Shown here in pieces: positions 6,334-64,000 of a DNA stretch of 64,000 bases. This stretch comes from a virus (lineage: Duplodnaviria; Caudoviricetes), in IMG/VR virus record IMGVR_UViG_2524614847_000004, positions 32,001-96,000 of that record; one strand, written 5' to 3'. Below the pieces are notes generated by a model. It had not been told where the DNA came from, made no database searches, and saw only the letters and a list, made by a program, of their open reading frames with translations. The position numbers were made by a program, and so were the translations under genes. The first letter of the stretch is position 1, and every line of letters begins with the position of its first letter.

Positions 6334-6501
6334 CTAAATCTTATTTCCGTGTGATACAAGTTTGTAATTCCACATTTCAGCACCATTCCAACTTCTCAAC
6401 AAATTTCCACATTCACAATACTCACTATCTTTATCTCTGGTAATGAGTTTTATTCTTCGTACTTCGTATTCGGCCCCACATTTTCCACAAGTTTCTTTCA
6501 T
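6334..6501 (-). CDS. Small Zn-ribbon-like protein (not in ORF track)
   Basis: MKETCGKCG...CECG, 55 aa, GGAGG RBS. Confidence 0.5.
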   Translation of the reverse strand: MKETCGKCGAEYEVRRIKLITRDKDSEYCECGNLLRSWNGAEMWNYKLVSHGNKI

Positions 6502-6607
6502 AACTTTATCCTCCTACAAAGTTTGTTTACTTTATATCCCCTCTATCATTTTATACCCAAATCTTAATACTTCATAATGTCTAATCCTTCATCAATCTTA
6601 GATTTTA

Positions 6608-6988
6608 TCAACTATCTTCTTCAAAATACACAACTTCATTTTCTTTTAACGGACACCAATCTTTAATAGACTCATATACATATCTTACCATTCTGCCATC
6701 ATCGTCGAAATCATCATAATTTTCATTTTCTATCAGATTCTTTAACCAATCAACAATATCCAAAAGCACTTTTTCTGAAACTATATTATATTCTTCTCTT
6801 ATCCAATGAATATCATCTCTTTGCTGATAAAATCTGTCTAAAACAGGTTTGTAACTATTAACCTCATCTATTGTTGCCTTTTGGATGTCATCATATAATA
6901 AGTAGCCACCTATATGATGAATTTTGGTTTTATCAGCTTTAATTAAGTACATATCATATCCCACAAATTCACCCCCATTGAATCTCAA
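6608..6988 (-). CDS. Hypothetical phage protein
   Basis: ORF track. Confidence 0.55.
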   Translation of the reverse strand: MRFNGGEFVGYDMYLIKADKTKIHHIGGYLLYDDIQKATIDEVNSYKPVLDRFYQQRDDIHWIREEYNIVSEKVLLDIVDWLKNLIENENYDDFDDDGRMVRYVYESIKDWCPLKENEVVYFEEDS

Positions 6989-7392
6989 ATTTCATTAACT
7001 TTATCATTAATTATTTTTTCAACAAGGCTTTCTGCGTTACTAGATAAATACCTTAATCTTTGTCCCTTAGGCATACCTGTTTCTTGCCATTTTATTTTAT
7101 CTATAACTTTAACTTCTTTAAATTGACTATTATCATACGCTTTAATATATTCTTCTGATTTATGATTCCAATATTTATCATCAGGTGCTGTATTATTACG
7201 TGAAAAGCTACATAGCCCACCCGTCCTTAAAATATAAGCATTGTCTCCATATCTAATTACAAAACAGTCGCCTTTTGATAATTCACCAATATTTAACGTA
7301 GAAACAGATAAAAATATCTCTGCCTTGTCATTAACCGCATCTTCGAATTTATACACAGATTGTTTTAAAACTCTTGCTTCTATCATACTCAT
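6985..7392 (-). CDS. Hypothetical phage protein
   Basis: ORF with RBS. Confidence 0.6.
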   Translation of the reverse strand: MSMIEARVLKQSVYKFEDAVNDKAEIFLSVSTLNIGELSKGDCFVIRYGDNAYILRTGGLCSFSRNNTAPDDKYWNHKSEEYIKAYDNSQFKEVKVIDKIKWQETGMPKGQRLRYLSSNAESLVEKIINDKVNEI

Positions 7393-7413
7393 GTCTCCTT
7401 TTTTATAAAACTA

Positions 7414-7599
7414 TTATTTCATATCAATTATTTTATCACTTAATTCTTTTAAGCAATTTTCACACATTCCACATACATCAATTCCTTTAGTGCCACCTTG
7501 TACTTGTGTACATATTTCAATGTTATATAATTGTTCTGGCAAATGCTTCCCACAGGATAAACAATATGCCTTTTCTATACTTTTAACAATCTTAATCAT
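7414..7599 (-). CDS. Small Zn-binding hypothetical protein
   Basis: Two CxxC pairs; RBS. Confidence 0.55.
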   Translation of the reverse strand: MIKIVKSIEKAYCLSCGKHLPEQLYNIEICTQVQGGTKGIDVCGMCENCLKELSDKIIDMK

Positions 7600-7647
7600 A
7601 TTTTACTATTCCTTTCTAAGACTTTAAAATAATCATTTTAAGTTATT

Positions 7648-7941
7648 TTAATAACCACACTTTTTCATTTTTTCTATATTAAATTTGTATAAGGTAACTT
7701 CACCATGATATTTTTCAATCGAATACCTTTTTAAGTCTTCATCTGTATACAAGAATTTAAATTTTCTTAATTCGTTGTATAACTTCTTACTCATTTTTAA
7801 TGGATATGCATTCCACCCGTAACCCGTTTTCTTAGTTATTACTTGAATAATTGCTCCATTATCCATAACAATATCATTCTCATTTATATTAAAAGTATTT
7901 CTTCCTATCTTTAACTGTAAAGTATCAGATATTTCCATCAC
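7648..7941 (-). CDS. Hypothetical phage protein
   Basis: ORF track. Confidence 0.55.
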   Translation of the reverse strand: MMEISDTLQLKIGRNTFNINENDIVMDNGAIIQVITKKTGYGWNAYPLKMSKKLYNELRKFKFLYTDEDLKRYSIEKYHGEVTLYKFNIEKMKKCGY

Positions 7942-8092
7942 AACACCCCTTCTTTCTTCAATATCCGCTTCACTGTTTTATTATCTAGGCAGAACGCAGC
8001 TGCTACTCTCTTAATGTCATTGAATCGCTCGTATTCCTTTATAATATCTTCATCGGTAAATGCATAATTCGCCGGCTCATTCATGTACTTTT

Positions 8093-8644
8093 TCATGATT
8101 TCTCCAATAATATCAGTTTTTTTACTTTTTCAATTTCGTCGTTTGTATGAGGAGTACCACCTGCATTCATGTCAACATACCACTGAAGAACCTCTTTTTT
8201 GCTCTTCAAATCATTTATATTAACTTTCATAGTCTGATTCAATAATCTGATCCTATCTTCATATTCTTTAAAGTAAGATCCAAACACCTTTATTTCATTA
8301 TGAATGAATCGGGATGCTGCTGTTATCCTTTGTAATCCATCAACGCAAACATAGTCGCTATATTCTCCTGATTTTGTTCCAAATCTTCGTGACGGATTAT
8401 TTAAGTATATTACATTCCCAGACTTGCCTCCACGTAGATGATATTCTAACCACGCAATTTGCTGTTCCTCAGTCCATACATGACCTCTCTGGAAATCCGG
8501 ATTAAGTTGAAGACCCATCTCTTCTATTTCATCTTCTATATAATTAACCAAGCTTGCTAATGTATAATCCACTTGATAACTTCCATCAGAAGTAAATTGT
8601 GGAATATCTTTAAACCTCGTTATTTTCAAATCATTATCCTCCAA
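8093..8644 (-). CDS. Stand-alone DUF262 (ParB/Srx-like) domain protein
   Basis: PDFQRGHVW and VDGLQR motifs; MNAGG. Confidence 0.8.
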   Translation of the reverse strand: MEDNDLKITRFKDIPQFTSDGSYQVDYTLASLVNYIEDEIEEMGLQLNPDFQRGHVWTEEQQIAWLEYHLRGGKSGNVIYLNNPSRRFGTKSGEYSDYVCVDGLQRITAASRFIHNEIKVFGSYFKEYEDRIRLLNQTMKVNINDLKSKKEVLQWYVDMNAGGTPHTNDEIEKVKKLILLEKS

Positions 8645-8663
8645 TCACAATAAAACAATCCTT

Positions 8664-8924
8664 TTATCGTGTAAACTTACAATATATTTTATTAGACAGC
8701 TTAAGTCCTCCCGGAGCAAATTGTGGCACCTCATATAACTTGTATGAGTATCCACGTTTTTTAAACTCCATTATTGTTTCAACTGATCCGGTGCAGGTTG
8801 TATCAGTATACAGCACATTTAGCTTATGAGCATCGGCATATTCCAGACACTCATCATAAAAGGAATGATCTAATAATAAAGTGTTACTATCTCCTTCTTC
8901 AAATACTGGTATATATCCCATCAT
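8664..8924 (-). CDS. Hypothetical phage protein
   Basis: ORF with RBS. Confidence 0.55.
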   Translation of the reverse strand: MMGYIPVFEEGDSNTLLLDHSFYDECLEYADAHKLNVLYTDTTCTGSVETIMEFKKRGYSYKLYEVPQFAPGGLKLSNKIYCKFTR

Positions 8925-10676: not shown

Positions 10677-10919
10677 CTAATTTAGCATCTTCATGGTGTT
10701 AGCAACTCTGTTCAAACGTTCCGAAAGTTCTCCAAATGAGACCACAATCAATAAGGTAAGTATAAATCCAGTTAAGATCCCTATATAGAAGAAATCTCTC
10801 CATTTTGTAAATATAGGCATTTTTTGGCAATCGCTTATAACTTTAAATATAAAAGCTGAAACTATGGCAGTCGCCATCCATGTAATTAAATATAGAATTA
10901 TATAGTCTTTATAATTCAT
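10677..10919 (-). CDS. Small two-TM membrane protein
   Basis: Two hydrophobic segments; RBS. Confidence 0.5.
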   Translation of the reverse strand: MNYKDYIILYLITWMATAIVSAFIFKVISDCQKMPIFTKWRDFFYIGILTGFILTLLIVVSFGELSERLNRVANTMKMLN

Positions 10920-11140
10920 AAAATTAGTTCCTCCAAATTTCAGTTTCCTTTCTTATCCTTGCATTCTGGACATCGTGCATACCCGTTATTTTTAACAACC
11001 CAGCCTTGATCTTTAGCTATCTTTTTTAGCCTTGTATTATGATTACCAGTGCCAGAAAAACCATCAAGAACGGTGCAATATTCGTCACAGACAATTTCAT
11101 GCCATAGCATATAATCACCTCACGAAAATTCTAAATTTAC

Positions 11141-11353
11141 TTAATCCTTATTACATTTGCTTTTAAATTCACACTTACATTTTCTCCCGCCTGGAAGAGT
11201 AAAATAATATTTATTGCGATCCAACTCAGTTTGTCTTTGTGGCATATTCCCACCTGATATAAGACATACATATTCCTTATCTTTAAATCTGTTTTTCTTT
11301 TCAGTGATTGCTAACCACAAGCAATTTTTACAACAAACGTCAGGTAAATCCAT
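11141..11353 (-). CDS. Cys-rich hypothetical protein
   Basis: ORF track. Confidence 0.5.
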   Translation of the reverse strand: MDLPDVCCKNCLWLAITEKKNRFKDKEYVCLISGGNMPQRQTELDRNKYYFTLPGGRKCKCEFKSKCNKD

Positions 11354-11367
11354 AGTAAGACCCCTTT

Positions 11368-11733
11368 CTATTCATAATCGTAAGCTTCATTTAACCAACA
11401 CTTTTCTCTTTTATGCTTGCCACCTACCAGAGAATCAAGCTTAAGCCATGCCATTTCTTCATTTTCGGCAGGAATCTTAATTTCTGTTAAATATGGCTCT
11501 TTTACCCATTTATAGGCATCAAAATTCAAGCCAAAACAATATAGTTTCATGTCATTTTCTTTGCCACTGTTCATTTTTAAATCTGATTCTTTAAACATCC
11601 CCTTGGTATTAGCCCCAAGAGGCATGTTGTATTCTACTGTATAAATCGGTTCAATATCTAAATCAGGATGAAGCTTCACAACCGTACCGGCCGTATGCTG
11701 AATAAATACTTTGTCAAATAATTTATATTTCAT
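11368..11733 (-). CDS. Hypothetical phage protein
   Basis: ORF with RBS. Confidence 0.55.
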   Translation of the reverse strand: MKYKLFDKVFIQHTAGTVVKLHPDLDIEPIYTVEYNMPLGANTKGMFKESDLKMNSGKENDMKLYCFGLNFDAYKWVKEPYLTEIKIPAENEEMAWLKLDSLVGGKHKREKCWLNEAYDYE

Positions 11734-11842
11734 TTATTTATCTCCTTTTCTATAAAATGGATTTTTCTTGTTATAAATTCTAATTTTCATAATTAAAAAA
11801 ACTACCAATACGATTATTGATAGTTTAAAATAATATAGGTTA

Positions 11843-12406
11843 TTATTGTTTTGAATACATTGTCATGGACACCCCTGTGTCCTGTGTCAGTGTATCGTCA
11901 GGCATCTTACTCATTAAATAAGTTACATATAAGTCACCGGCAGCACCCGCTATGTTCCCCATTTGTACAAAATATATTACCCAAAAATAACTCTGTGGTA
12001 CTATAGCATTAATTATAAATAGTACAATACCGAGAATTACAACAGGAGCAAGTGATATTATGATGTAATGCTTTTTATTGAAGTAAGCATCACTACCTGC
12101 ATATGCACAGAACCAAGCATGACCGTAATGTGCCTTTATCCCACTAAATTTTTTCATATAAAATCCGTGTATCGCTTCATGCATAATAATATAGATTATA
12201 TACAAGAATACAGCAAGAATTAATAGGTAGATAAATTTGGAATCAACTGTAAATGTTATAGGATTAATAATAGCACCTATAAATGCCATAACAATAAAAA
12301 ATATAAATGAAAAGATGTTTATAACAATAAATGTTTTTTTATCTTCTGTCAAATCTACCTTTCTTATTTCCTTATATCCTTCTGGTAATTGATTCATATT
12401 TGTCAC
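11843..12406 (-). CDS. DUF3267-like membrane zinc metalloprotease (moron)
   Basis: HEAIH (HExxH), multiple TM helices, LAP and GAAGDLY; own promoter (12443-12471) and terminator (11799-11826). Confidence 0.75.
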   Translation of the reverse strand: MTNMNQLPEGYKEIRKVDLTEDKKTFIVINIFSFIFFIVMAFIGAIINPITFTVDSKFIYLLILAVFLYIIYIIMHEAIHGFYMKKFSGIKAHYGHAWFCAYAGSDAYFNKKHYIIISLAPVVILGIVLFIINAIVPQSYFWVIYFVQMGNIAGAAGDLYVTYLMSKMPDDTLTQDTGVSMTMYSKQ

Positions 12407-23027: not shown

Positions 23028-26000
23028 CTAGTACCCATAATATAATTCAATTATTTTTTCCTTTTTTAGTTGTTCTATTTCTATATCATTTATATCTATA
23101 TTAGAGTATGACTGTTTTAAAGTTTCTTTGGCTTCAATTTCAACATCCGCAAATATAATGCCCACAACTATTTCTCCACAGTTTCTAAAGTAATATTTAT
23201 ACATACAATAACCTCCATTGTTTTTCATTTATTCCCACTATAAAAGCCACCGGAACATTGCCCAATGGCTTCAAACTGAAAATAAATATACTACATTGTT
23301 TCTCTTTGCTCTTCCGTATTAATTGCTAATGCTTCGTAATAATCTTCCTTGCAAATTTCATCACTTGTATTTGTTGGAGATATCCACTTGTCACAGCTTT
23401 TAAAATATTCGGAATATTGACAAAAATATTTTTCTGAGGTTTTAAAATACTCCCATCTTCTCCCGTTTTTCTTATCATATAAGAAAAAACTATTTTTATG
23501 TGTATGATAACCCATTTTATTACCCCCTTAAAAGTACTATTTATTTATCATAATTATTGATCCAGTCTTCCGCTGCTTCTACTGTATCAAATTCCATATC
23601 AGAGTCAGAAGGACTGCACATATAGGCATATTCCATATTATCAGGGTGTAAAACTGTTATGTTGAATCTATATTCTTCTAATTCCTTATTATTGTTCTGG
23701 TAAATTCCCCAACCTTTAAGCTTCTTAACTCTCTTCATTCTGTTTTACCTCTCAACCAAAGAATAGTTTTATTGTATTACGGTTCTTGAATCTCATTAGT
23801 AAAATTCTCTAACAGTATCTCCAATCGTAATATCTTAGCTTCTGTTTTTTTAAGTTTTTTTAAGGCAGTTTGAAAAGAAATGTCTGTTTGACATTCTGAT
23901 AAATCAATTATTATTTTTATCAAATCTTCTTTTCTGTCCTTTTCTGCTTCAATATCATCTGTTATTAGATTATAAATGTCTACATATAAATCCTTTGTCA
24001 TTTTGATTTACCCCCACTCATAAAATAAGAATTTCAAAGCAATCCCTTTTCAATCGCTTGTTCTGGCCTTCCTCCCTCAATATATGGAAGCAAGTGTCTT
24101 TTATCTTTACGATAGTTTCCTGCACCATCATATATAAGTGCGGATTGTTCGCTTGAAAGTTTCATAGCCTTGTTGTGGTATTTCGTACAATAAGGCTCTG
24201 TATTATTGCAAGCAGTAGTTAAACGCTGATATTTACGTATTTCAATTTCAAGTTCAATAATTCGTTTATCCTCTTCTGAAAGTTTCATGTATTTTCCCTC
24301 CATTTCTCAATGCTGCGGACTTGTGACCGCTTGACTTGTGTCAAGTGCATTAAAGCAGCCCTTATAGGCTGCTCCACTCTGCTTATACTACTTCAAGGTA
24401 TAAATCTTCAATATCGTAGTTTACTAACTCGTCTTTAAAATCTTTTCGCCAAGTGTTACAATTTTTCTCAAACCTTTTTTTATTGCAATCCCAAATTGAT
24501 GTAATAATGTCACCATTTTTATGCCTTATTTGTGCTTGATACTTATTATTTTTCACTGCCTTTCCCTCCATGAAATTCGGTTTTTATTTACCACACCTTT
24601 TCATATTTAACGGAACATACACGGTCAATTAAGTCATCAATTTTTATCTGTATTGGCTTTTCCAATTCTTTTAATTCTTCATAAGATATATCACAAATAT
24701 CATAAAGTGCATCTCGTTTATCCTGTAAAGCTCTTAATTCAGATTCTAGTTCTTGTAATATCTTTGAATTTTTATTGTTTAAAGTTCTTTCTCTGTAATG
24801 ATCTCTTCTTGTATAACCGATACTTCCATATAAGGACATCTTAATTTCTCCTATCAAATAATTGTTTCATTTAATAAATGTTTTAAAAATAAGAATTTCT
24901 ATCTTTTACTAATTCTTGTATTATTTCTTTCATTTCGCTGATATTATCAGCAACTCTTGACCTTGAAAATCCGTCTTTCCACTTCATTACAATACAAATA
25001 TGTTTATCTTCCCTATACAAATCACTAATAAGATGTTGATATTTTTTAGGAACATAATTGATTAAATTTTTCATTATATCACTCCCTTAATAAATTTGAA
25101 TATTCTATTTCACTTCTATAAAATGTTTAGTTATGCCTCTACCACTTCTAAAATATATTTTCCGTTATCGGCTTTATGCACATTAAATTTCTTAACACAC
25201 TGAAACTTTAATGGAATTTCTGAAACTGAAAAGGAATATAAGAACGACATATTATCATTGTAAAATTCCACTGTTTCAATTTCTTCTCCGTACATAAGCA
25301 TATCAATCAATTTTTCTAAGTTAATCTTATTTGTTTTCATCTTCAGTCCTCCCAATGAAATGGATATTCTATGCCACTTCTATATCATTGATGTACGTCA
25401 ACGTATTTGTTCTCCAGTGACCAGCTTCTATATACTCTGCCTGAATGTTTTCCGCGTAGCCGTACATATTCAAATTATGCACCGATATTCTTAAGCCTGA
25501 TAATTCCATAATGCAATACTTTGTTTTGCCTGTATCCTTGTTTAATACTTTGTAAGGGATAAAGTCCAGATAGACAAAGTACTTTTTCCCTTCCGTACTT
25601 GACATAGCATCACATACCGCAAAGCCGTCTATAATTCCGGTTTGTTTCATTGCCTGATCGTGAATTGATTCCACGATATCCGTCGGAATTTTGCTTTTAA
25701 GTAATGAAAAATCGTATAAATACTTTTTATTGTTGGTAAATTCCTTCTTGTTTTCCTTCAGATCTGGAAATGACTTTTTCATTTTCGCCATGCTCGGCAG
25801 ACAGTTCAATGTATTGTATTTGTTCATTTTAAAATCTCCCTTTCAAAAGTTTAAAATCGTACCGCCTAGATGAATTTTCTGTACTCCGGTATGTCCTGTT
25901 TCTACATTCTCAAAAACTAAAGTTTCCGATTCGATTTTAATATTTGGTGACATGATGTTTAATATCTCTCTGCACCTTTTTGCTGATAATGTAGGCATGT

Positions 26001-37776: not shown

Positions 37777-38289
37777 GTCGTTAGTTGACTTACATTCGGT
37801 AAGTAGATTAACGACACCTCTTCAATAACAATTGGTTTATGAACGGGAAACTGTATCAATAAAAATAAACTAACTCGTGAAGGATAAGGCTTGGTTCCTG
37901 AATGGGAGTAGGTAGCAATACCAAGAATTCCTTTGCCCTGGGGTTAGTTTGACAGTTTATAAAATACCCGTTTGCTTGGGTTATTGATACGATGATGTGG
38001 TTCAACATAACCCACTTTTCATATTTTAAAATAGCACTGAGTACGAAATTTAATATGAAGACTAAAAGTTGTAACGTGCCCGTAATAAGTGTCGTTAAAA
38101 ATTGCAGTTTTACGAGCTGTGGTCTACCGGAATAGAACGTTTTATGGGGACAGTGTTTTATACCGTTAAGGATAGAATTAGGCAGCTATCACGCCCTATG
38201 GGTCTTAAAGAGATGTCGGAGTGCCACCCGACTAACAGTATAGACATATTATTTCGTCAATAAGGTGTTGACAAAGGGGTGCATATGTC
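37777..38289 (+). ncRNA. Large structured non-coding RNA candidate (ROOL/GOLLD-like context)
   Basis: About 510 nt with no ORF in the track and nested helices; next to a tRNA. Confidence 0.55.
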
Positions 38290-58890: not shown

Positions 58891-59034
58891 TATTTGAGTT
58901 TTATATATTAATTTTTGTAATTAATGGTTGCTTTCTAACAACCGACTTTTGGCAAATTATGTGATATTATGTCATTAATAAATTTATTGCTCATGCAAAT
59001 ACTAGATGTACGACTAAATTGTAGAGGTGTTTGC

Positions 59035-59253
59035 ATGTTTATAAAATTACGTGACGTAAGAATAGAAAAAGGTATATCAATAAGAGAACTAGAGCAGAAA
59101 TCGGGGGTTGATAGGTCGACAATCAGTAGGATTGAGAATGAACAAGCCATTCCTAGCGTATTAACGTTGTGTAAATTGGCATATGCTTTAAATGTGACAT
59201 TAGATGACTTAGTAGAATATACGGAATATTGTGAAAAAGAAAAGGGGGAGTAA
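59035..59253 (+). CDS. XRE-family HTH regulator
   Basis: LRDVR...SIRELEQKSGVDRSTISRIE; likely start MFIKL. Confidence 0.8.
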   Translation: MFIKLRDVRIEKGISIRELEQKSGVDRSTISRIENEQAIPSVLTLCKLAYALNVTLDDLVEYTEYCEKEKGE

Positions 59254-59527
59254 TATGTCTGAGAAGATGTATTATAATGTGATTTGTGAGGAGATTGGAG
59301 TTACTGGCGGTAAAATTATTCATGTTGATGAGAATAAAGGTACGATTCAAGAAGTTCATGATCTTGTAGATGAGAATATTGAAAAGTGGCCAAATGGGAA
59401 GTTTATCCAAGATTTTTTAAAGCTTTATTTTCTATTTAAATACCGATTTGTTTTAGATTTTAGGCGCTTATGCTGTAACAGGTATGGGCGCTTTTTGTAT
59501 GTAAAAATGAAAGGAAGTGATTTTCGT

Positions 59528-60547
59528 ATGAAGAAAATACCAGAAGTAACAAGCGAAGAATGGGGTAAAGTTAATGTATTTAACAGGTTTATTTATGACG
59601 ATTTCTTTGCCAACAACATTGAACTATCAGACAAATCTATTAAGGCATATCGTAGTTCATTAAAAATTTGGTTCAGATGGGTTATGGAGAATTTAAGCAA
59701 CAAACAACAGACAGAAATTAAGGGGTTGGACTTTAAGAGGTATCAGAACTGGCTAATAAGTCTTGGACACTCTTCTTCTGACATTTCAAATAAACGTGCT
59801 GCTGTTAGCAGTTTAAATAATTACATAATGGTATATTACGAAAGCGATTTTCCTACATTTCGCAACTTCATCAATTCCTCAATAAAGAAACCAGAAAAGT
59901 CTTTTGTTAGAGAAAAGATTCCTCCAACAAAAGCTGAAATGGAAAAACTTATTTCTACATTAAAAGAAGGTAAGGTTAAAGACAAATATCAGAAAATTGC
60001 TTATTTAAAGTTCACATGGGAAACTGGTTGTCGCAGAGCCGAAACAATGCAAATTATGAAAGACATTATTAACTCTGAACCGATTATAAAAAAGAAATTG
60101 GTTAAGTTGGAAGATGGGGCTGAAGAAGAAAAAGAAATCAAATACTATCTTACCCCGAAAATCAGATGTAAGGGGCGTGGGAAAACCGGAAAAATTCGAC
60201 GCTTGAAATTCTCTGATTATTCCTTGGAAGCATTTAAAAAATGGTTGGAAGAACGAGGAGATGATGATTGCCCATATATGTTTATCACAAAATATAACGG
60301 TGGAATTAATCAGGTAAGCGAAACCACATTTAATAATTGGTGTACTGATGTATTCTCTCCTATTATTGGTAGACGATTTCATCCGCATATTCTTAGGGAA
60401 GGACGAGCGACAAGTATAGTCGTTGAAGAAGGCAAGAATATCGAAGCAGCTCAAGCCTTGCTTGGACATGAATCGAGCCAAACCACACAGATCTACGTAA
60501 TTAGAGATGATGAAGATGAGGATTCCGATGAGCTATTTATGGATTAA
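59528..60547 (+). CDS. Tyrosine recombinase (YomM-like position before the tape measure)
   Basis: TGCRRAE, KGRG, HPHILR and LLGHESS.TT.IY motifs; RBS before the ATG at 59528. Confidence 0.88.
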   Translation: MKKIPEVTSEEWGKVNVFNRFIYDDFFANNIELSDKSIKAYRSSLKIWFRWVMENLSNKQQTEIKGLDFKRYQNWLISLGHSSSDISNKRAAVSSLNNYIMVYYESDFPTFRNFINSSIKKPEKSFVREKIPPTKAEMEKLISTLKEGKVKDKYQKIAYLKFTWETGCRRAETMQIMKDIINSEPIIKKKLVKLEDGAEEEKEIKYYLTPKIRCKGRGKTGKIRRLKFSDYSLEAFKKWLEERGDDDCPYMFITKYNGGINQVSETTFNNWCTDVFSPIIGRRFHPHILREGRATSIVVEEGKNIEAAQALLGHESSQTTQIYVIRDDEDEDSDELFMD

Positions 60548-60661: not shown

Positions 60662-62752
60662 ATGGATAATTTAATTCTCCAGCTTGTCACTAGGTTGGAT
60701 TCTAGCAAAACGGCTGATGATGTAAAGAAAATACAGGAACAGTTAAATGCTAAAGGTATAACCTTAAAACCCGTTCTTGACACTGCAACAAGTAAAAAGG
60801 AAATTCAGAACCTAGCCAAGCAATTACAATCGATAATGTCGTCAGTTGACCCGAAGTTTGGTGAGATAGGTGTTAAAGAATATACGTCTGCCATTAATGC
60901 TACTATTTCTGCCTCAAAGAAGGCTACTGCTGAACAGGACAGATTTGTCAATTCAATGGCACGAGGACGGGAACAATCAGAATTATTACGTTCTGCAGAA
61001 GAAAAACGTCAGCAACTGGCGCAAAGTAATGCGATAAACAAGAATCTTGAAGCCGAATACATTGAACGTCAGAAAATCTCACAGAAAATTGATGAGCAAG
61101 CTAATAAAATAAGAAATTTGCAATCAAGTGGGAACGTAGATTTAAATTTTGATAAAGTTAAAACATCAATAAATAATCTTGATAAGATTGGATTGGCAAC
61201 AGAATCATTAAAAAATGATTTTAAGCAGCTAAGTGTTCTATATAAAGGTATTGATAGTTCAACTCCGACAAAGCTTATAACCACATACTCTGCCTTTGAT
61301 TCTCAGTTAAAGAAGGTTAATAATTCAATTGCTACACAGAAATTAGGATTATCAGAAGTAAAACAGCAAGTTTCACAAGTAGATAAAATTACTTTTGCTA
61401 ATCAGATACAAGCGTGGCGTAGAGTTAACTCAGCAGCCGAGAAAGAATTTGGTGGTACGCTTGATGAATTACTCATCAAACTGAAAGAAATCGATAATAA
61501 ATCAGATTTCAGTAATCTACAAAAGAAATTTCGAGGTGTAAAGGCTGAAGCTGACGCTTTAGGGGTTACTGGTAAAAGTATAGGTGACACATTCGCATCA
61601 AGTGCACGTAAATTTTCAGAATGGATTGTTTCTGCTGGCGCTGTAATGACTGTGGTTCAGTCTGTGAAACAGATGGTTTCTAACGTTATAATATTAGACT
61701 CAGCAATGACCAATCTTTATAAGGTTACAGATGAGACAGATAGCAAGTACAATCAGTTTCTGATAAGCGCTAATAAAAACGCACAGGAGTTAGGCAGGTC
61801 TGTATCTAGTCTCGTTGAACAAACTGCAACATGGGCCAAGCTTGGATTTAATATTGACCAAGCAGAACAATTAGCAAAAATTTCTTCTATTTACGCTAAC
61901 GTGGGCGAAGTTGATGATAAGACTGCAATATCCGACCTTGTTACGGCAATGAAAAGTTTTAACATCGAAAGTTCAAAAAGTATCACAATTGTAGACTCGC
62001 TTAACAAACTTGGAAACGAGTTTGCGACAGATGCAGGTTCGCTCGGTGAAGGATTAAAAAATGCTGCCTCTGCACTCGCTCTTGGTGGAATGGATATTAA
62101 CAAATCACTAGCACTTTTAACTGGTGGATCTGAAATCACTCAAAATGCTGGAGAATTAGGCAACGCTTTAAAGGTCGGTCAAATGCGTGTAATGGGCATG
62201 AAAGGCGCTTTAGAAGAACTTGGCGAAGAAGCAGAAGGTCTTGAATCAGTTAGTAAAATACAAACTCATATTCTTAATCTGACAAAAGGCCAGGTTAATA
62301 TTATGAACGACGCAGATCCATCGAAATTCAAAGATTATTACGAAATTCTTGAAGGTGTTTCTAAGGTATTTGATTCATTAGATCAGACGAAACGTGCCGA
62401 TCTTTTAGAAACACTTTTCGGGAAACAGCGCGGCAATCAAGGTGCGGCTGTAATTCAGGCATTTCAGTCTGGACAAGTACAAAAAGCTCTCGATGCATCG
62501 ATCAATTCGGCAGGTAGCGCATATGCTGAACAGGAAAAATGGCTTGAATCAATAGAGGCGAAGACGCAGCAGTTTATTGCATCGTTTCAGTCTTTATCGA
62601 GTGCCATAGTGGATTCTGATGGGCTAAAACTGCTTGTAGATTCTGGAACATCTTTAAATAACATTTTAACTGAATTAATTCGAAACTTTGGCATTTTGCC
62701 AACGCTTGTATCTGGTGCAGGTATTGCATCATTCGTAAAAAACTTCGCTTAG
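60662..62752 (+). CDS. Tape-measure protein, 5' portion/exon
   Basis: TP901-like core (LDSAMT.L.KV, IVDSLNKLGNEFA, LFGKQ); ends abruptly at FVKNFA*. Confidence 0.85.
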   Translation: MDNLILQLVTRLDSSKTADDVKKIQEQLNAKGITLKPVLDTATSKKEIQNLAKQLQSIMSSVDPKFGEIGVKEYTSAINATISASKKATAEQDRFVNSMARGREQSELLRSAEEKRQQLAQSNAINKNLEAEYIERQKISQKIDEQANKIRNLQSSGNVDLNFDKVKTSINNLDKIGLATESLKNDFKQLSVLYKGIDSSTPTKLITTYSAFDSQLKKVNNSIATQKLGLSEVKQQVSQVDKITFANQIQAWRRVNSAAEKEFGGTLDELLIKLKEIDNKSDFSNLQKKFRGVKAEADALGVTGKSIGDTFASSARKFSEWIVSAGAVMTVVQSVKQMVSNVIILDSAMTNLYKVTDETDSKYNQFLISANKNAQELGRSVSSLVEQTATWAKLGFNIDQAEQLAKISSIYANVGEVDDKTAISDLVTAMKSFNIESSKSITIVDSLNKLGNEFATDAGSLGEGLKNAASALALGGMDINKSLALLTGGSEITQNAGELGNALKVGQMRVMGMKGALEELGEEAEGLESVSKIQTHILNLTKGQVNIMNDADPSKFKDYYEILEGVSKVFDSLDQTKRADLLETLFGKQRGNQGAAVIQAFQSGQVQKALDASINSAGSAYAEQEKWLESIEAKTQQFIASFQSLSSAIVDSDGLKLLVDSGTSLNNILTELIRNFGILPTLVSGAGIASFVKNFA

Positions 62753-63206
62753 CTCTGAAATAAGAGTTACACTTAAATCTTTCCGAGGGATTTAGTTGGG
62801 CTATCTAGGGGGAGGAAATACCATAATGGCGGTATATACAATTCCTAGAGACGAAAGTTTTAAAATAAAAAGAGGATTAATTGCTTGAAAGTGTAACGCT
62901 CACTACTCTTCTATTTTAGAAGAAGCCGAGAAATAAGGCAAATAAGTCAAACGGTTTATACACCGGAGTGAGATTTCTAGGGATAAAAAATAATTCCCGA
63001 CAGAAGTACAATCACCAACGAAGCAGCTAACCCTATCTACGCTAAGTCGTGGCATATAATCCGATGGTAGCAATTGCGAAAGCAGTGTCGGGATAAAGTC
63101 ATAAAAGATAGGGAATGTTCAACGAGCACCATTCCTCACAGTATGCAAAAGCCTGATTTTGTGTGCTGTTAATGCATGTTCTAAAGTATACGAAGTATCA
63201 AACTTC
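62750..63206 (+). ncRNA. Group I intron ribozyme core
   Basis: P3, P4, P6/P6a, P7 with G-binding site, P8 and P9 all pair; see findings. Confidence 0.8.
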
Positions 63207-63307
63207 AATGTTATTCAATGTAAGATATCAAAACATTTACACTTGTCTGGAAATTTCTTCCTCTCTATGATATAATAATTTTAAAAAGAGATACAGGAGG
63301 GAATTGT

Positions 63308-63937
63308 ATGAAAAGGTTATTAGTTTTATTAATGACAGCTACTATTGCTATTTGCAGCACATTTGTTTCTTTTGCAGGAGAATGGAAACAGAACGATAAA
63401 GGTTGGTGGTATCAGAACGACGACGGAAGTTATGTAACATCTTCATGGAAGGAAATTGATGGGAAACAATATTATTTTGGATGGCATGGTTATATGTTGC
63501 ATGATACGACTACACCAGATGGGTACTATGTTGGATCAGATGGGGCGTGGATCCCAGACGGAGAAATCTTGAATTCTGAGGCGGTGAATCCTTTGGGTGA
63601 TAAGGATTTAGCAATTCAGACATTAGCAAATTTAATGATTACATTAAAAGACCCCAATTCCCTAGAGGTAAACAAAATATATTGTCAAACAATCGTTGGT
63701 GGAGCGGGTGCGATATTGAGGCAGGTTGTTATTAGATACTCGGCTACAAATACTTATGGTGGAAGAGTTGCAGATTATTATTCTGCATGGGCAAGTCCAA
63801 AAGATGGAAGTTTGGTATTAGATAGTGGTTTTAGGAAGGTTACACAGGAAATCTTAAATTCTGCGTTTGATAAAACCGAGTTAAACATTGATGAAATCTT
63901 ACCTGCGGCACAACAGTTGGCTAACAGTTGGTATTAA
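63308..63937 (+). CDS. Secreted protein with cell-wall-binding repeats (moron or intron cargo)
   Basis: Signal peptide; WWYQNDDGSY/WKEIDGKQYYF repeats; C-terminal LKDP...ATNTYGG domain; own promoter 63243-63276. Confidence 0.8.
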   Translation: MKRLLVLLMTATIAICSTFVSFAGEWKQNDKGWWYQNDDGSYVTSSWKEIDGKQYYFGWHGYMLHDTTTPDGYYVGSDGAWIPDGEILNSEAVNPLGDKDLAIQTLANLMITLKDPNSLEVNKIYCQTIVGGAGAILRQVVIRYSATNTYGGRVADYYSAWASPKDGSLVLDSGFRKVTQEILNSAFDKTELNIDEILPAAQQLANSWY

Positions 63938-63952
63938 TATTAAGTGCAGTTT

Positions 63953-63982
63953 AAAGAGTCTGAACATATCAGACTCTTTTTA
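63953..63982 (+). terminator. Intrinsic terminator
   Basis: AAAGAGTCTGA-ACATA-TCAGACTCTTT followed by T residues. Confidence 0.8.
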
Positions 63983-64000
63983 TGTGTGATAATTTTTGTT

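Follow-up and report, generated by a model that had tools for sequence, protein, structure and literature searches.

Group I introns of phages are usually seen as small selfish elements with, at most, a homing endonuclease aboard. The nrdD (sunY) intron of phage T4 has a compact core, and its open reading frame (ORF), which follows on the 3′ side in a loop near P9, encodes a homing endonuclease on the sense strand. Morons, a concept of Hendrix and colleagues, belong to phage late operons, where they lie between genes. Group I introns (TMP-IVS1/2/3) have been described in the tape-measure protein (TMP) genes of Bacillus cereus-group prophages; one gene can have several insertion sites, one site can be occupied by different introns, and some copies have no complete endonuclease gene (Tourasse and Kolsto 2008; PMC2504315). 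For IStrons, a 5′ group I core with a kb-long, gene-bearing 3′ tail has been described that splices in cells and restores the host reading frame, and an association of such introns with 'uncharacterized accessory factors' has been mentioned (PMC10690162). The locus analyzed here lies at the end of a 64,000-nucleotide stretch of DNA (the window), which represents bases 32001–96000 of a 135,533-bp provirus record of IMG/VR (IMGVR_UViG_2524614847_000004; CheckV completeness 78%), and in which a TMP gene is interrupted by a ribozyme-like element followed by unrelated genes. We conclude that this element is very probably a group I intron in the TMP gene of an SPbeta-like prophage of a Lachnospiraceae host, with P1–P8 and P7′ contained in its first ~435 nt.

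The TMP ORF, which an initial annotation of the window had reported to end after 696 aa in front of a ribozyme core, occupies 60662–62752 (+), closes with TAG and is followed by a group I-type fold of ~440 nt. It matches Pfam PhageMin_Tail (E 2.3e-21), and its best matches among named phages are the TMPs of large SPbeta-like siphophages of Bacillota (24–31% identity); Lachnospiraceae hosts are indicated by pattern matches in named genomes (Lacrimispora, Hungatella, Clostridium sp.). In the whole record, an ORF of 1204 aa and then one of 550 aa follow on the same strand, beginning ~500 nt beyond the window end. Five IMG/VR relatives of the N-terminal part of the TMP were retrieved for exon comparison, which was done by tblastn and translation against contiguous TMPs and at the nucleotide junctions. 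Both parts form one continuous frame in the uninterrupted TMPs of two relatives, L005 (..FVKNFEQLKN..) and L007 (..FIKNFDNLKN..), and the window copy reads ..FVKNFA*, then 1873 nt, then QLKDLGN.., in frame. By alignment to these two alleles, exon 1 comprises 60662–62749 (+), that is, 696 codons, the last of which is GCT, with its U preceding the 5′ splice site. The downstream exon and terminal G that had been predicted to lie beyond the window were both located there: exon 2 begins with CAACTT at window-equivalent 64623, 623 nt past the window end, on the same strand and in frame, and is preceded by G. Exon 2 is open over 1613–2076 aa, with zero stops, in all five relatives searched.

Exact-word scans and an nhmmer profile applied to 118 loci revealed full-length relatives of the element in 11 further loci of 10 contigs, as well as one weak match (E 1e-5) in the Thomasclavelia phage TR-TP1 (L003). 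We distinguish type A (the window copy, L010/L008 and L011), type B (L009, L012, L013 and L014; ~72% identical to the window copy in the 3′ half) and type C (L031, L016/L018 and L076; 86–90% identical). A covariance model built for the core's 3′ half (R1) matched 17 places in 24 sources, including six named or metagenome-assembled genome contigs, and four of the five metagenome loci examined (nine pattern matches, mostly the same contigs as in IMG/VR); it matched nothing in L002, TR-TP1, L004–L007 or L129. A blastn search of 50,697 phage records with the core as query gave no match. Wherever the upstream ORF was read (window copy, L010, L012, L016, L076, L127, L128, L130, L131 and L132), the core directly follows the same TMP codon, after ..KN(F/Y)(A/G/D) or ..KSLG.

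At this codon the gene occurs in intron-less, cargo-free and cargo-laden states. L005 and L007 are intron-less, and L127 carries a compact, in-frame copy of 542 nt (6345–6886) that contains no ORF and has ~76 nt from P7′ to the terminal G. Loaded copies measure 1796 nt in L010, 1873 nt in the window, 2247 nt in L012, approximately 3.1 kb in G004 and 3.3 kb in G005, ~3.5 kb in L016, ~3.85 kb in L132, 4238 nt in G003, 4416 nt in G002, more than 6 kb in L128 and 11,474 nt in G001. The idea of a landing pad for genes put forward in the initial annotation is thus borne out in that relatives with this core at this codon have different genes behind it (introns of 1.8–11.5 kb) and the 542-nt copy has none. 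Over 438 nt at the start of the insert, the window copy and L008 share 95.4% DNA identity, compared with 60.5% protein identity in the flanking TMP exon; for G003, identity is 99% in the core and 84% in exon 2. A core that is more alike than its flanking exons would be the signature of a mobile element.

The sole junction that keeps the frame joins GCU|UAG at 62749|62750 to ..UAUCG|CAACUU at genome 96622|96623 (window-equivalent 64622|64623). The intron delimited in this way is 1873 nt long (genome 94750–96622, window-equivalent 62750–64622, plus strand), with 62750–64000 inside the window, and ends in G. A U precedes the 5′ site in 10 out of 10 copies of our main alignment (A2), which comprises 10 sequences of three diverged lineages; L018, whose core is identical to that of L016, and L008, which is on the same contig as L010, were omitted from it. 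The L008 insert sits at the same TMP codon as the window intron. Similarly, G precedes exon 2 in all nine ends read (window copy, L010, L016, L012, L119, L120, L121, L122 and L127). An alternative 5′ site after UAGCU, 5 nt downstream, was rejected because the stop codon would be kept and because L010 and L011 have UGACU at this place, which would be unable to pair. Independent translation of exon 2 was also ruled out as a general solution: the final intron triplet is ATG or TTG in seven of nine copies and TCG in the window copy and L012, so that no start codon is shared, and no Shine-Dalgarno sequence was seen by eye.

The 5′ splice site GCU^UAG had been proposed in the initial annotation together with a pairing guide, and both are backed by compensatory changes, the guide being GGC at 62799–62801. 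Within the P1 region (62747–62801, +), exon GCU (62747–62749) faces this guide with a U62749·G62799 wobble at the splice site, and this U·G pair is invariant in the 10 aligned copies. Exon and guide occur as GCU/GGC, GGU/GCC and GAU/GUC; next to U·G, type A has a C-G pair, types B and C have G-C and L127 has A-U, matched on both sides each time. Between exon GCU and the guide lie two P1-loop hairpins (62750–62756/62763–62769 and 62774–62779/62789–62794). The candidate P10 guide segment, AGUUG at 62794–62798, can pair with the beginning of exon 2, the exon 2/guide pairing being CAACU/AGUUG in the window copy (5 bp), CAACUUAAA/UUUAAGUUG in type C (9 bp) and CAGUU/AGCUG in L127, where an A-U pair has undergone a compensatory change to G-C. 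A P10 was looked for in type B and none was seen; in L076, one mismatch is uncompensated. The sequence CUUAAA, which forms the inner hairpin strand in type C, is identical to the exon-2 sequence, a pattern that would be expected if P10 replaces the loop-proximal part of P1. An additional exon–intron helix pairs 62740–62744 (exon positions −10 to −6) with 62856–62860; spanning 62740–62860 (+), it encloses P1 and P2. P2 (62804–62811/62842–62849 and 62818–62822/62831–62835) has 8 of 13 pairs changed on both sides, and in the extra helix every cell of the 10-sequence alignment is paired and two of the five pairs have changed on both sides.

The catalytic core (62872–63182, +) follows the group I helix order P3-P4-P5-P6-P7-P3′-P8-P7′, with a P3/P7 pseudoknot; P6, P7 and P8 co-vary and P3 and P4 pair without variation. 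The helices P3, P4, P6a, P7 and P8 named in the initial annotation were all found where it had placed them. P3 is formed by GAGGA (62872–62876) and TCCTC (63133–63137), and P4 by TGCTT (62882–62886) and AAGCA (63021–63025). A P5 extension of ~135 nt (62887–63020) is followed by P6 (63026–63027/63117–63118) and by P6a-c (63031–63113), in which P6a pairs 63031–63038 with 63106–63113 and a GNRA loop is present. P7 (63122–63128/63177–63182) consists of A63122, a bulged C63123 and GAGCA (63124–63128) opposite TGTTCT, and P8 pairs 63139–63147 with 63160–63168. A candidate P9 hairpin (63192–63206, GAAGU-AUCAA-ACUUC) was read from the sequence alone. Similarity to the nearest relatives ends at about 63190 by blastn, ~10 nt past the P7′ strand, and the variable cargo region starts there.

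When the structure was written on the main alignment (P1, the two P1-loop hairpins, P2, P3, P4, P6–P6c, P7 and P8, with P3/P7 as a pseudoknot), standard pairs filled 96.6% of the pair cells, compared with 36–43% when partners were slid by 1–3 columns and 88.4% in shuffles. Both-sided changes were found in 26 of 87 pairs, against 2–6 in the slid controls, and the covariation score was 0.340, against 0.05–0.08. None of 500 shuffles reached the observed values, except for the count of pair types, which was reached by all 500. In line with this, the single-sequence fold energy was below that of shuffles (z −3.73). P6a is CCAUAUCU/AGAUAUGG in L010, CCCUAUCU/AGAUAGGG in the window copy and CCAUGUCC/GGACAUGG in L131; P8 is rebuilt with other sequence in types B and C and in L131; and P6c is capped by GAAA, GCAA or GUAA, that is, by a GNRA loop. 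In P7, the pairs G-C, A-U, G·U, C-G and A-U are constant, the outer pair is A-U or G-C and the bulge is C or A. The G-C pair next to the bulge, which we take to be the guanosine site, had been described as kept, and G63124–C63181 is indeed unchanged in the 16 distinct sequences of a wider alignment (A5). The alignment shows a core without extra helices between P7 and P3′, and the segments GUUCA-ACGAGCA-CCA and AAUUGCUUGAAAG may correspond to the classical R and P elements, which they resemble.

The features that the initial annotation had placed after the core, namely a promoter, a secreted wall-binding gene and a terminator, are present in this order. The promoter-like site (63248–63276, +; a TG-extended TGGAAA-17-TATAAT) is no more than a consensus match, and promoter-like sites are not in excess in the region (9, against 9.1 in shuffles). 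The cargo gene (63308–63937, +) encodes a 209-aa protein with a signal peptide, choline-binding-type wall-binding repeats and a C-terminal alpha/beta domain. It matches Pfam Choline_bind_2 (E 4.6e-10) and, in PHROG, the wall-binding part of endolysins, and its homologues are all unnamed; in a predicted structure the repeats match pneumococcal choline-binding modules, and a fold search with the C-terminal domain gave no match. The intrinsic-terminator-like hairpin (63953–63979, +; 11-bp stem and T run) lies between the cargo gene and a convergent antisense gene for a zinc-ribbon protein. With regard to the promoter and terminator of its own that mark a moron, consensus signals are thus found at the expected places, with promoter-like sites equally frequent in shuffled sequence. 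A proposed pairing of 63218–63245 with 63941–63967, which would have masked the terminator, was not confirmed: the 25 longest of the 43 inverted repeats found in the intron do not include it, and no such helix is needed, since the intron extends 655 nt beyond the terminator. An 11-nt perfect inverted repeat (L001 1723–1733/3310–3320) was likewise discarded, being at about chance level and not conserved in L010 or L011.

In the relatives, the same position is occupied by other genes. L010 carries an antisense MazF/PemK-like protein and a zinc-ribbon protein, and G003 a PBECR3 nuclease-like protein, an XRE regulator, a Bro-N/KilAC antirepressor and a zinc-ribbon protein. NYN or YbjQ-type proteins are encoded in G002 and L132, and G002 also has a lipoprotein-like N-terminus (by reading, with no scan match). 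L016 encodes a membrane-spanning-looking protein without a family match, a secreted 363-aa protein, wall-binding in appearance by eye and without a Pfam match, and a zinc-ribbon protein. The cargo of G001 comprises three tail-collar fibre-type genes (one by Pfam, the rest by eye), two wall-binding-type proteins, one with an N-terminus close to that of the window cargo protein, and a zinc-ribbon protein; an antisense three-ORF insertion sequence, IS66-type by eye, lies between its tail-collar fibre genes (L124 5891–8293) and is a separate insertion. As a separate observation, a cargo ORF in the type B intron of L012 (9817–10329) matches the tape-measure PHROG phrog_4211 (E 5.5e-11), that is, a TMP fragment lies within a TMP intron.

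The initial annotation had further suggested that cargo takes the place of a homing endonuclease. This stands as far as no known family of such enzymes was found in the intron, and needs amending in that a second, conserved gene is present beside the 3′ site. This antisense gene (window-equivalent 64109–64570, −), which lies beyond the window and converges with the cargo gene, encodes 153 aa with two zinc ribbons, and its promoter-like site (TTGATA-17-TAATAT) and start occupy the last ~60 nt of the intron. It adjoins the 3′ site in the window copy, L010, L012, L016, G001, G003 and L132, and also in L004, whose ribozyme-like 5′ part is unrelated; it is absent at this site in G002 and G004, and L014 has a homologous antisense ORF as judged by its C-terminus. 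At E ≤ 0.001, the family comprises 517 members, for which 'zinc-ribbon domain-containing protein' is the only name given, and its C-terminal module is strongly conserved. Searches with Pfam, PHROG and PADLOC and a fold search (model pLDDT 71) returned generic ribbons only. Two further loci with this gene are recorded here in their own right. In L133 (500–4400), six antisense zinc-ribbon paralogues are interleaved with TMP fragments and the core keeps its 3′ half only, which makes it a clearly decayed, or rearranged, version. L004 (7405–10067) has a TMP N-terminal part 91% identical, and at the same codon a different ribozyme-like 5′ element that neither R1 nor Rfam matches, followed by an Abi-like ORF (by eye) and then by the same antisense zinc-ribbon gene.

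The T4 nrdD (sunY) intron has the same core-first order, with its coding sequence looped out near P9, whereas the cargo of the window lineage is unrelated to homing, has its own signals and is found in both orientations. Like morons, this cargo is surrounded by promoter-like and terminator-like signals inside the late structural region; unlike morons, it lies in an intron within an essential gene. With the B. cereus-group introns (PMC2504315), the window lineage shares a self-splicing-type intron in a prophage TMP, several insertion sites per gene, a guide adapted to its site, copies without a complete homing-endonuclease gene and the occurrence of different introns at one site, here an unrelated core in L004 at the same codon. 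Those introns are IA1/IA2 and of ordinary size, whereas the window intron is unrecognised by Rfam, lacks P7.1/P7.2 between P7 and P3′ and has a large P5 extension, and its lineage carries 1.4–11 kb of unrelated genes downstream of the core. The IStrons CdISt1 and CboIStron (PMC10690162) resemble it in layout, with the core at the 5′ end, a kb-long gene-bearing 3′ tail and a distant 3′ splice site. In contrast to them, the window intron has no tnpA/tnpB, omega-RNA or TTGAT-type target motif, and the cargo of its lineage consists of varied accessory genes, many of them antisense. Neither tnpA/tnpB nor transposon ends were found in the ORF lists and the Pfam and PHROG scans of the window copy, L010, L012, L016, L125 and L126, and the fixed site in one gene points to homing or recombination rather than transposition. 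Searches of the full-text literature, judged on abstracts and listings, turned up no phage group I intron described as carrying accessory or moron cargo. Neither the intron itself nor its location is out of the ordinary; what is unusual is the cargo, recurrent, exchangeable, partly antisense and up to 11.5 kb long, together with the conserved zinc-ribbon neighbour.

Several points weigh against the interpretation of the element as a group I intron that still splices. The scan with group I models that the initial annotation had proposed did not recognise the core: with Rfam 15 and a limit of E ≤ 10, cmscan found Intron_gpI neither at the end of the window nor in the complete intron, types B and C (L012 and L016), L008, TR-TP1, the L004 intron region or the compact L127 copy, no known intron having been run as a positive control. 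IStron IA2 cores are stated to match the Rfam model (PMC10690162), and the window core does not, which therefore places the window lineage outside the reach of that model. P1 is short, with three contiguous pairs in types A and C and five in type B. P3 and P4 are invariant and, as they never vary, neither support nor contradict the structure model; for the same reason, the P3/P7 pseudoknot rests on complementarity and one co-varying P7 pair. One control of the pairing test (control b) is lenient, and the structure was derived from the same sequences. In the wider alignment, which covers the 3′ half of the core in 16 distinct sequences, 95.6% of the cells are paired and 21 of 43 pairs changed on both sides, values that lean towards the structure since this alignment was fitted to a covariance model. 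No known homing-endonuclease family (LAGLIDADG, GIY-YIG, HNH, His-Cys or PD-(D/E)XK) was found in the window intron, whose ORF scans gave choline-binding repeats and zinc ribbons only. A terminator-like hairpin stands on the sense strand inside the intron. Finally, exon 2 of the window provirus is split into 1204 and 550 aa in overlapping frames at a run of five A (genome 100077–100081), where L005 has a single frame (genome 100017–100117, window-equivalent 68017–68117; L134 228–232). This split may be a real frameshift, a programmed frameshift or an assembly error, and the window copy may be defective.

The last two points also favour the alternative that survives best, namely that the element is a group I intron by descent in which cargo or the internal terminator abolished splicing, the TMP being made as two polypeptides or not at all in a defective prophage. 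The completeness of the record, the decayed L133 copy and the 11.5-kb intron of one relative with its IS66 element (family by eye) likewise count in favour of a dead intron. We nevertheless regard this as unlikely, given that the core is 95–99% identical across phages with diverged TMP exons, that the guide tracks the exon sequences, that exon 2 remains open in all of the relatives searched and that the window copy has no start codon at the junction. The conserved core and guide, the open exon 2 and the lack of a shared junction start codon indirectly suggest that loaded copies may still be functional.

Joining in trans, which the initial annotation had also considered, would require exon 1 with the ribozyme and the 3′ tail with exon 2 to be separate transcripts, on account of the internal terminator and the convergent genes. 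The terminator does lie between the two halves, and within a few bases of exon 2 are the P10 partner and the terminal G, all that the 3′ half requires. Yet no sense-strand promoter was found for the 3′ half, there is no conserved long-range pairing, the 43 inverted repeats being at chance level in AT-rich DNA, and the compact L127 copy shows an ordinary cis intron as the ancestral state, which makes trans-splicing very improbable; alternative tail lengths, suggested along with it, found no support either. That the element is no intron but another structured RNA bordering an accessory-gene island that separates two independent TMP genes is hardly credible despite the missing Rfam match, as the helix order, the P3/P7 crossing, the bulged P7 with its G-C pair, the junction U·G, the terminal G and the guide–exon covariation all fit group I, the contiguous alleles are one gene and exon 2 has no conserved start codon.

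For a cis-splicing group I intron, the following course of events would be expected. The internal guide would pair with the last bases of exon 1, placing the U·G wobble at the splice site, and a guanosine would attack 62749|62750. The second helix, formed with positions −10 to −6 of the exon, could keep hold of the released exon, and we suggest that it may retain it until the distant 3′ site has been made. Guide segment AGUUG would then pair with the start of exon 2 as P10, the terminal G (window-equivalent 64622) would dock, and the exons would be joined to give ..KNFA-QLKDL.., the expected ligated RNA being ..AACTTCGCT joined to CAACTTAAAG... The stretch from P9 to the last ~55 nt would be dispensable for catalysis and may thereby have come to accept accessory genes that bring their own expression signals and are read in either direction, in the window copy the secreted wall-binding protein and the antisense zinc-ribbon protein. 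Read-through of moron terminators by late transcription is a general idea, and we infer such read-through of the internal terminator, as well as RNA splicing itself and the mode of intron movement.

A wider proposal, for which we claim only tentative standing, is that the 3′ tail of a functional intron serves as a general accessory-gene island of this phage lineage, reaching 11.5 kb, with the zinc-ribbon protein as a new intron-associated factor in mobility, maintenance or splicing control. The tail would tolerate accessory genes because inserts are spliced out of the mRNA of the essential gene, and the island would then exchange nuclease toxins, wall-binding or exclusion-type proteins, regulators and spare tail-fibre genes. 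The same intron is found at one codon in three states: absent, compact (542 nt) and loaded with 1.4–11 kb of varied genes. If the loaded forms splice, the intron would be a safe harbour for gene gain in an essential gene, a route for the turnover of morons and defence genes that our literature searches did not find described, and a natural test of the possible distance of a 3′ splice site from a group I core. Furthermore, since this intron lineage is missed by the Rfam model, similar split phage genes may be annotated as truncated.

Other inserts with large sense ORFs were seen in TMP genes, at L008 1868–3460, L012 6886–8188 and TR-TP1 (L003) 7081–8714 and 10896–12405; those of TR-TP1 have ORFs annotated as HNH endonucleases, and all are probably further introns at other sites. 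Directly upstream of the TMP, in the structural region, the window encodes a 438-aa tyrosine recombinase (59231–60547, +; Phage_integrase, E 3.6e-17), beside which lies a small ORF (58969–59253) with a helix-turn-helix reading by eye; the arrangement of a recombinase upstream of the TMP is also present in L004. Elsewhere in the window, two other RNAs matched Rfam at gathering level, a type-P5 twister ribozyme at 24315–24383 (−; 52.9 bits) and a skipping-rope RNA at 38161–38240 (+; 60.3 bits).

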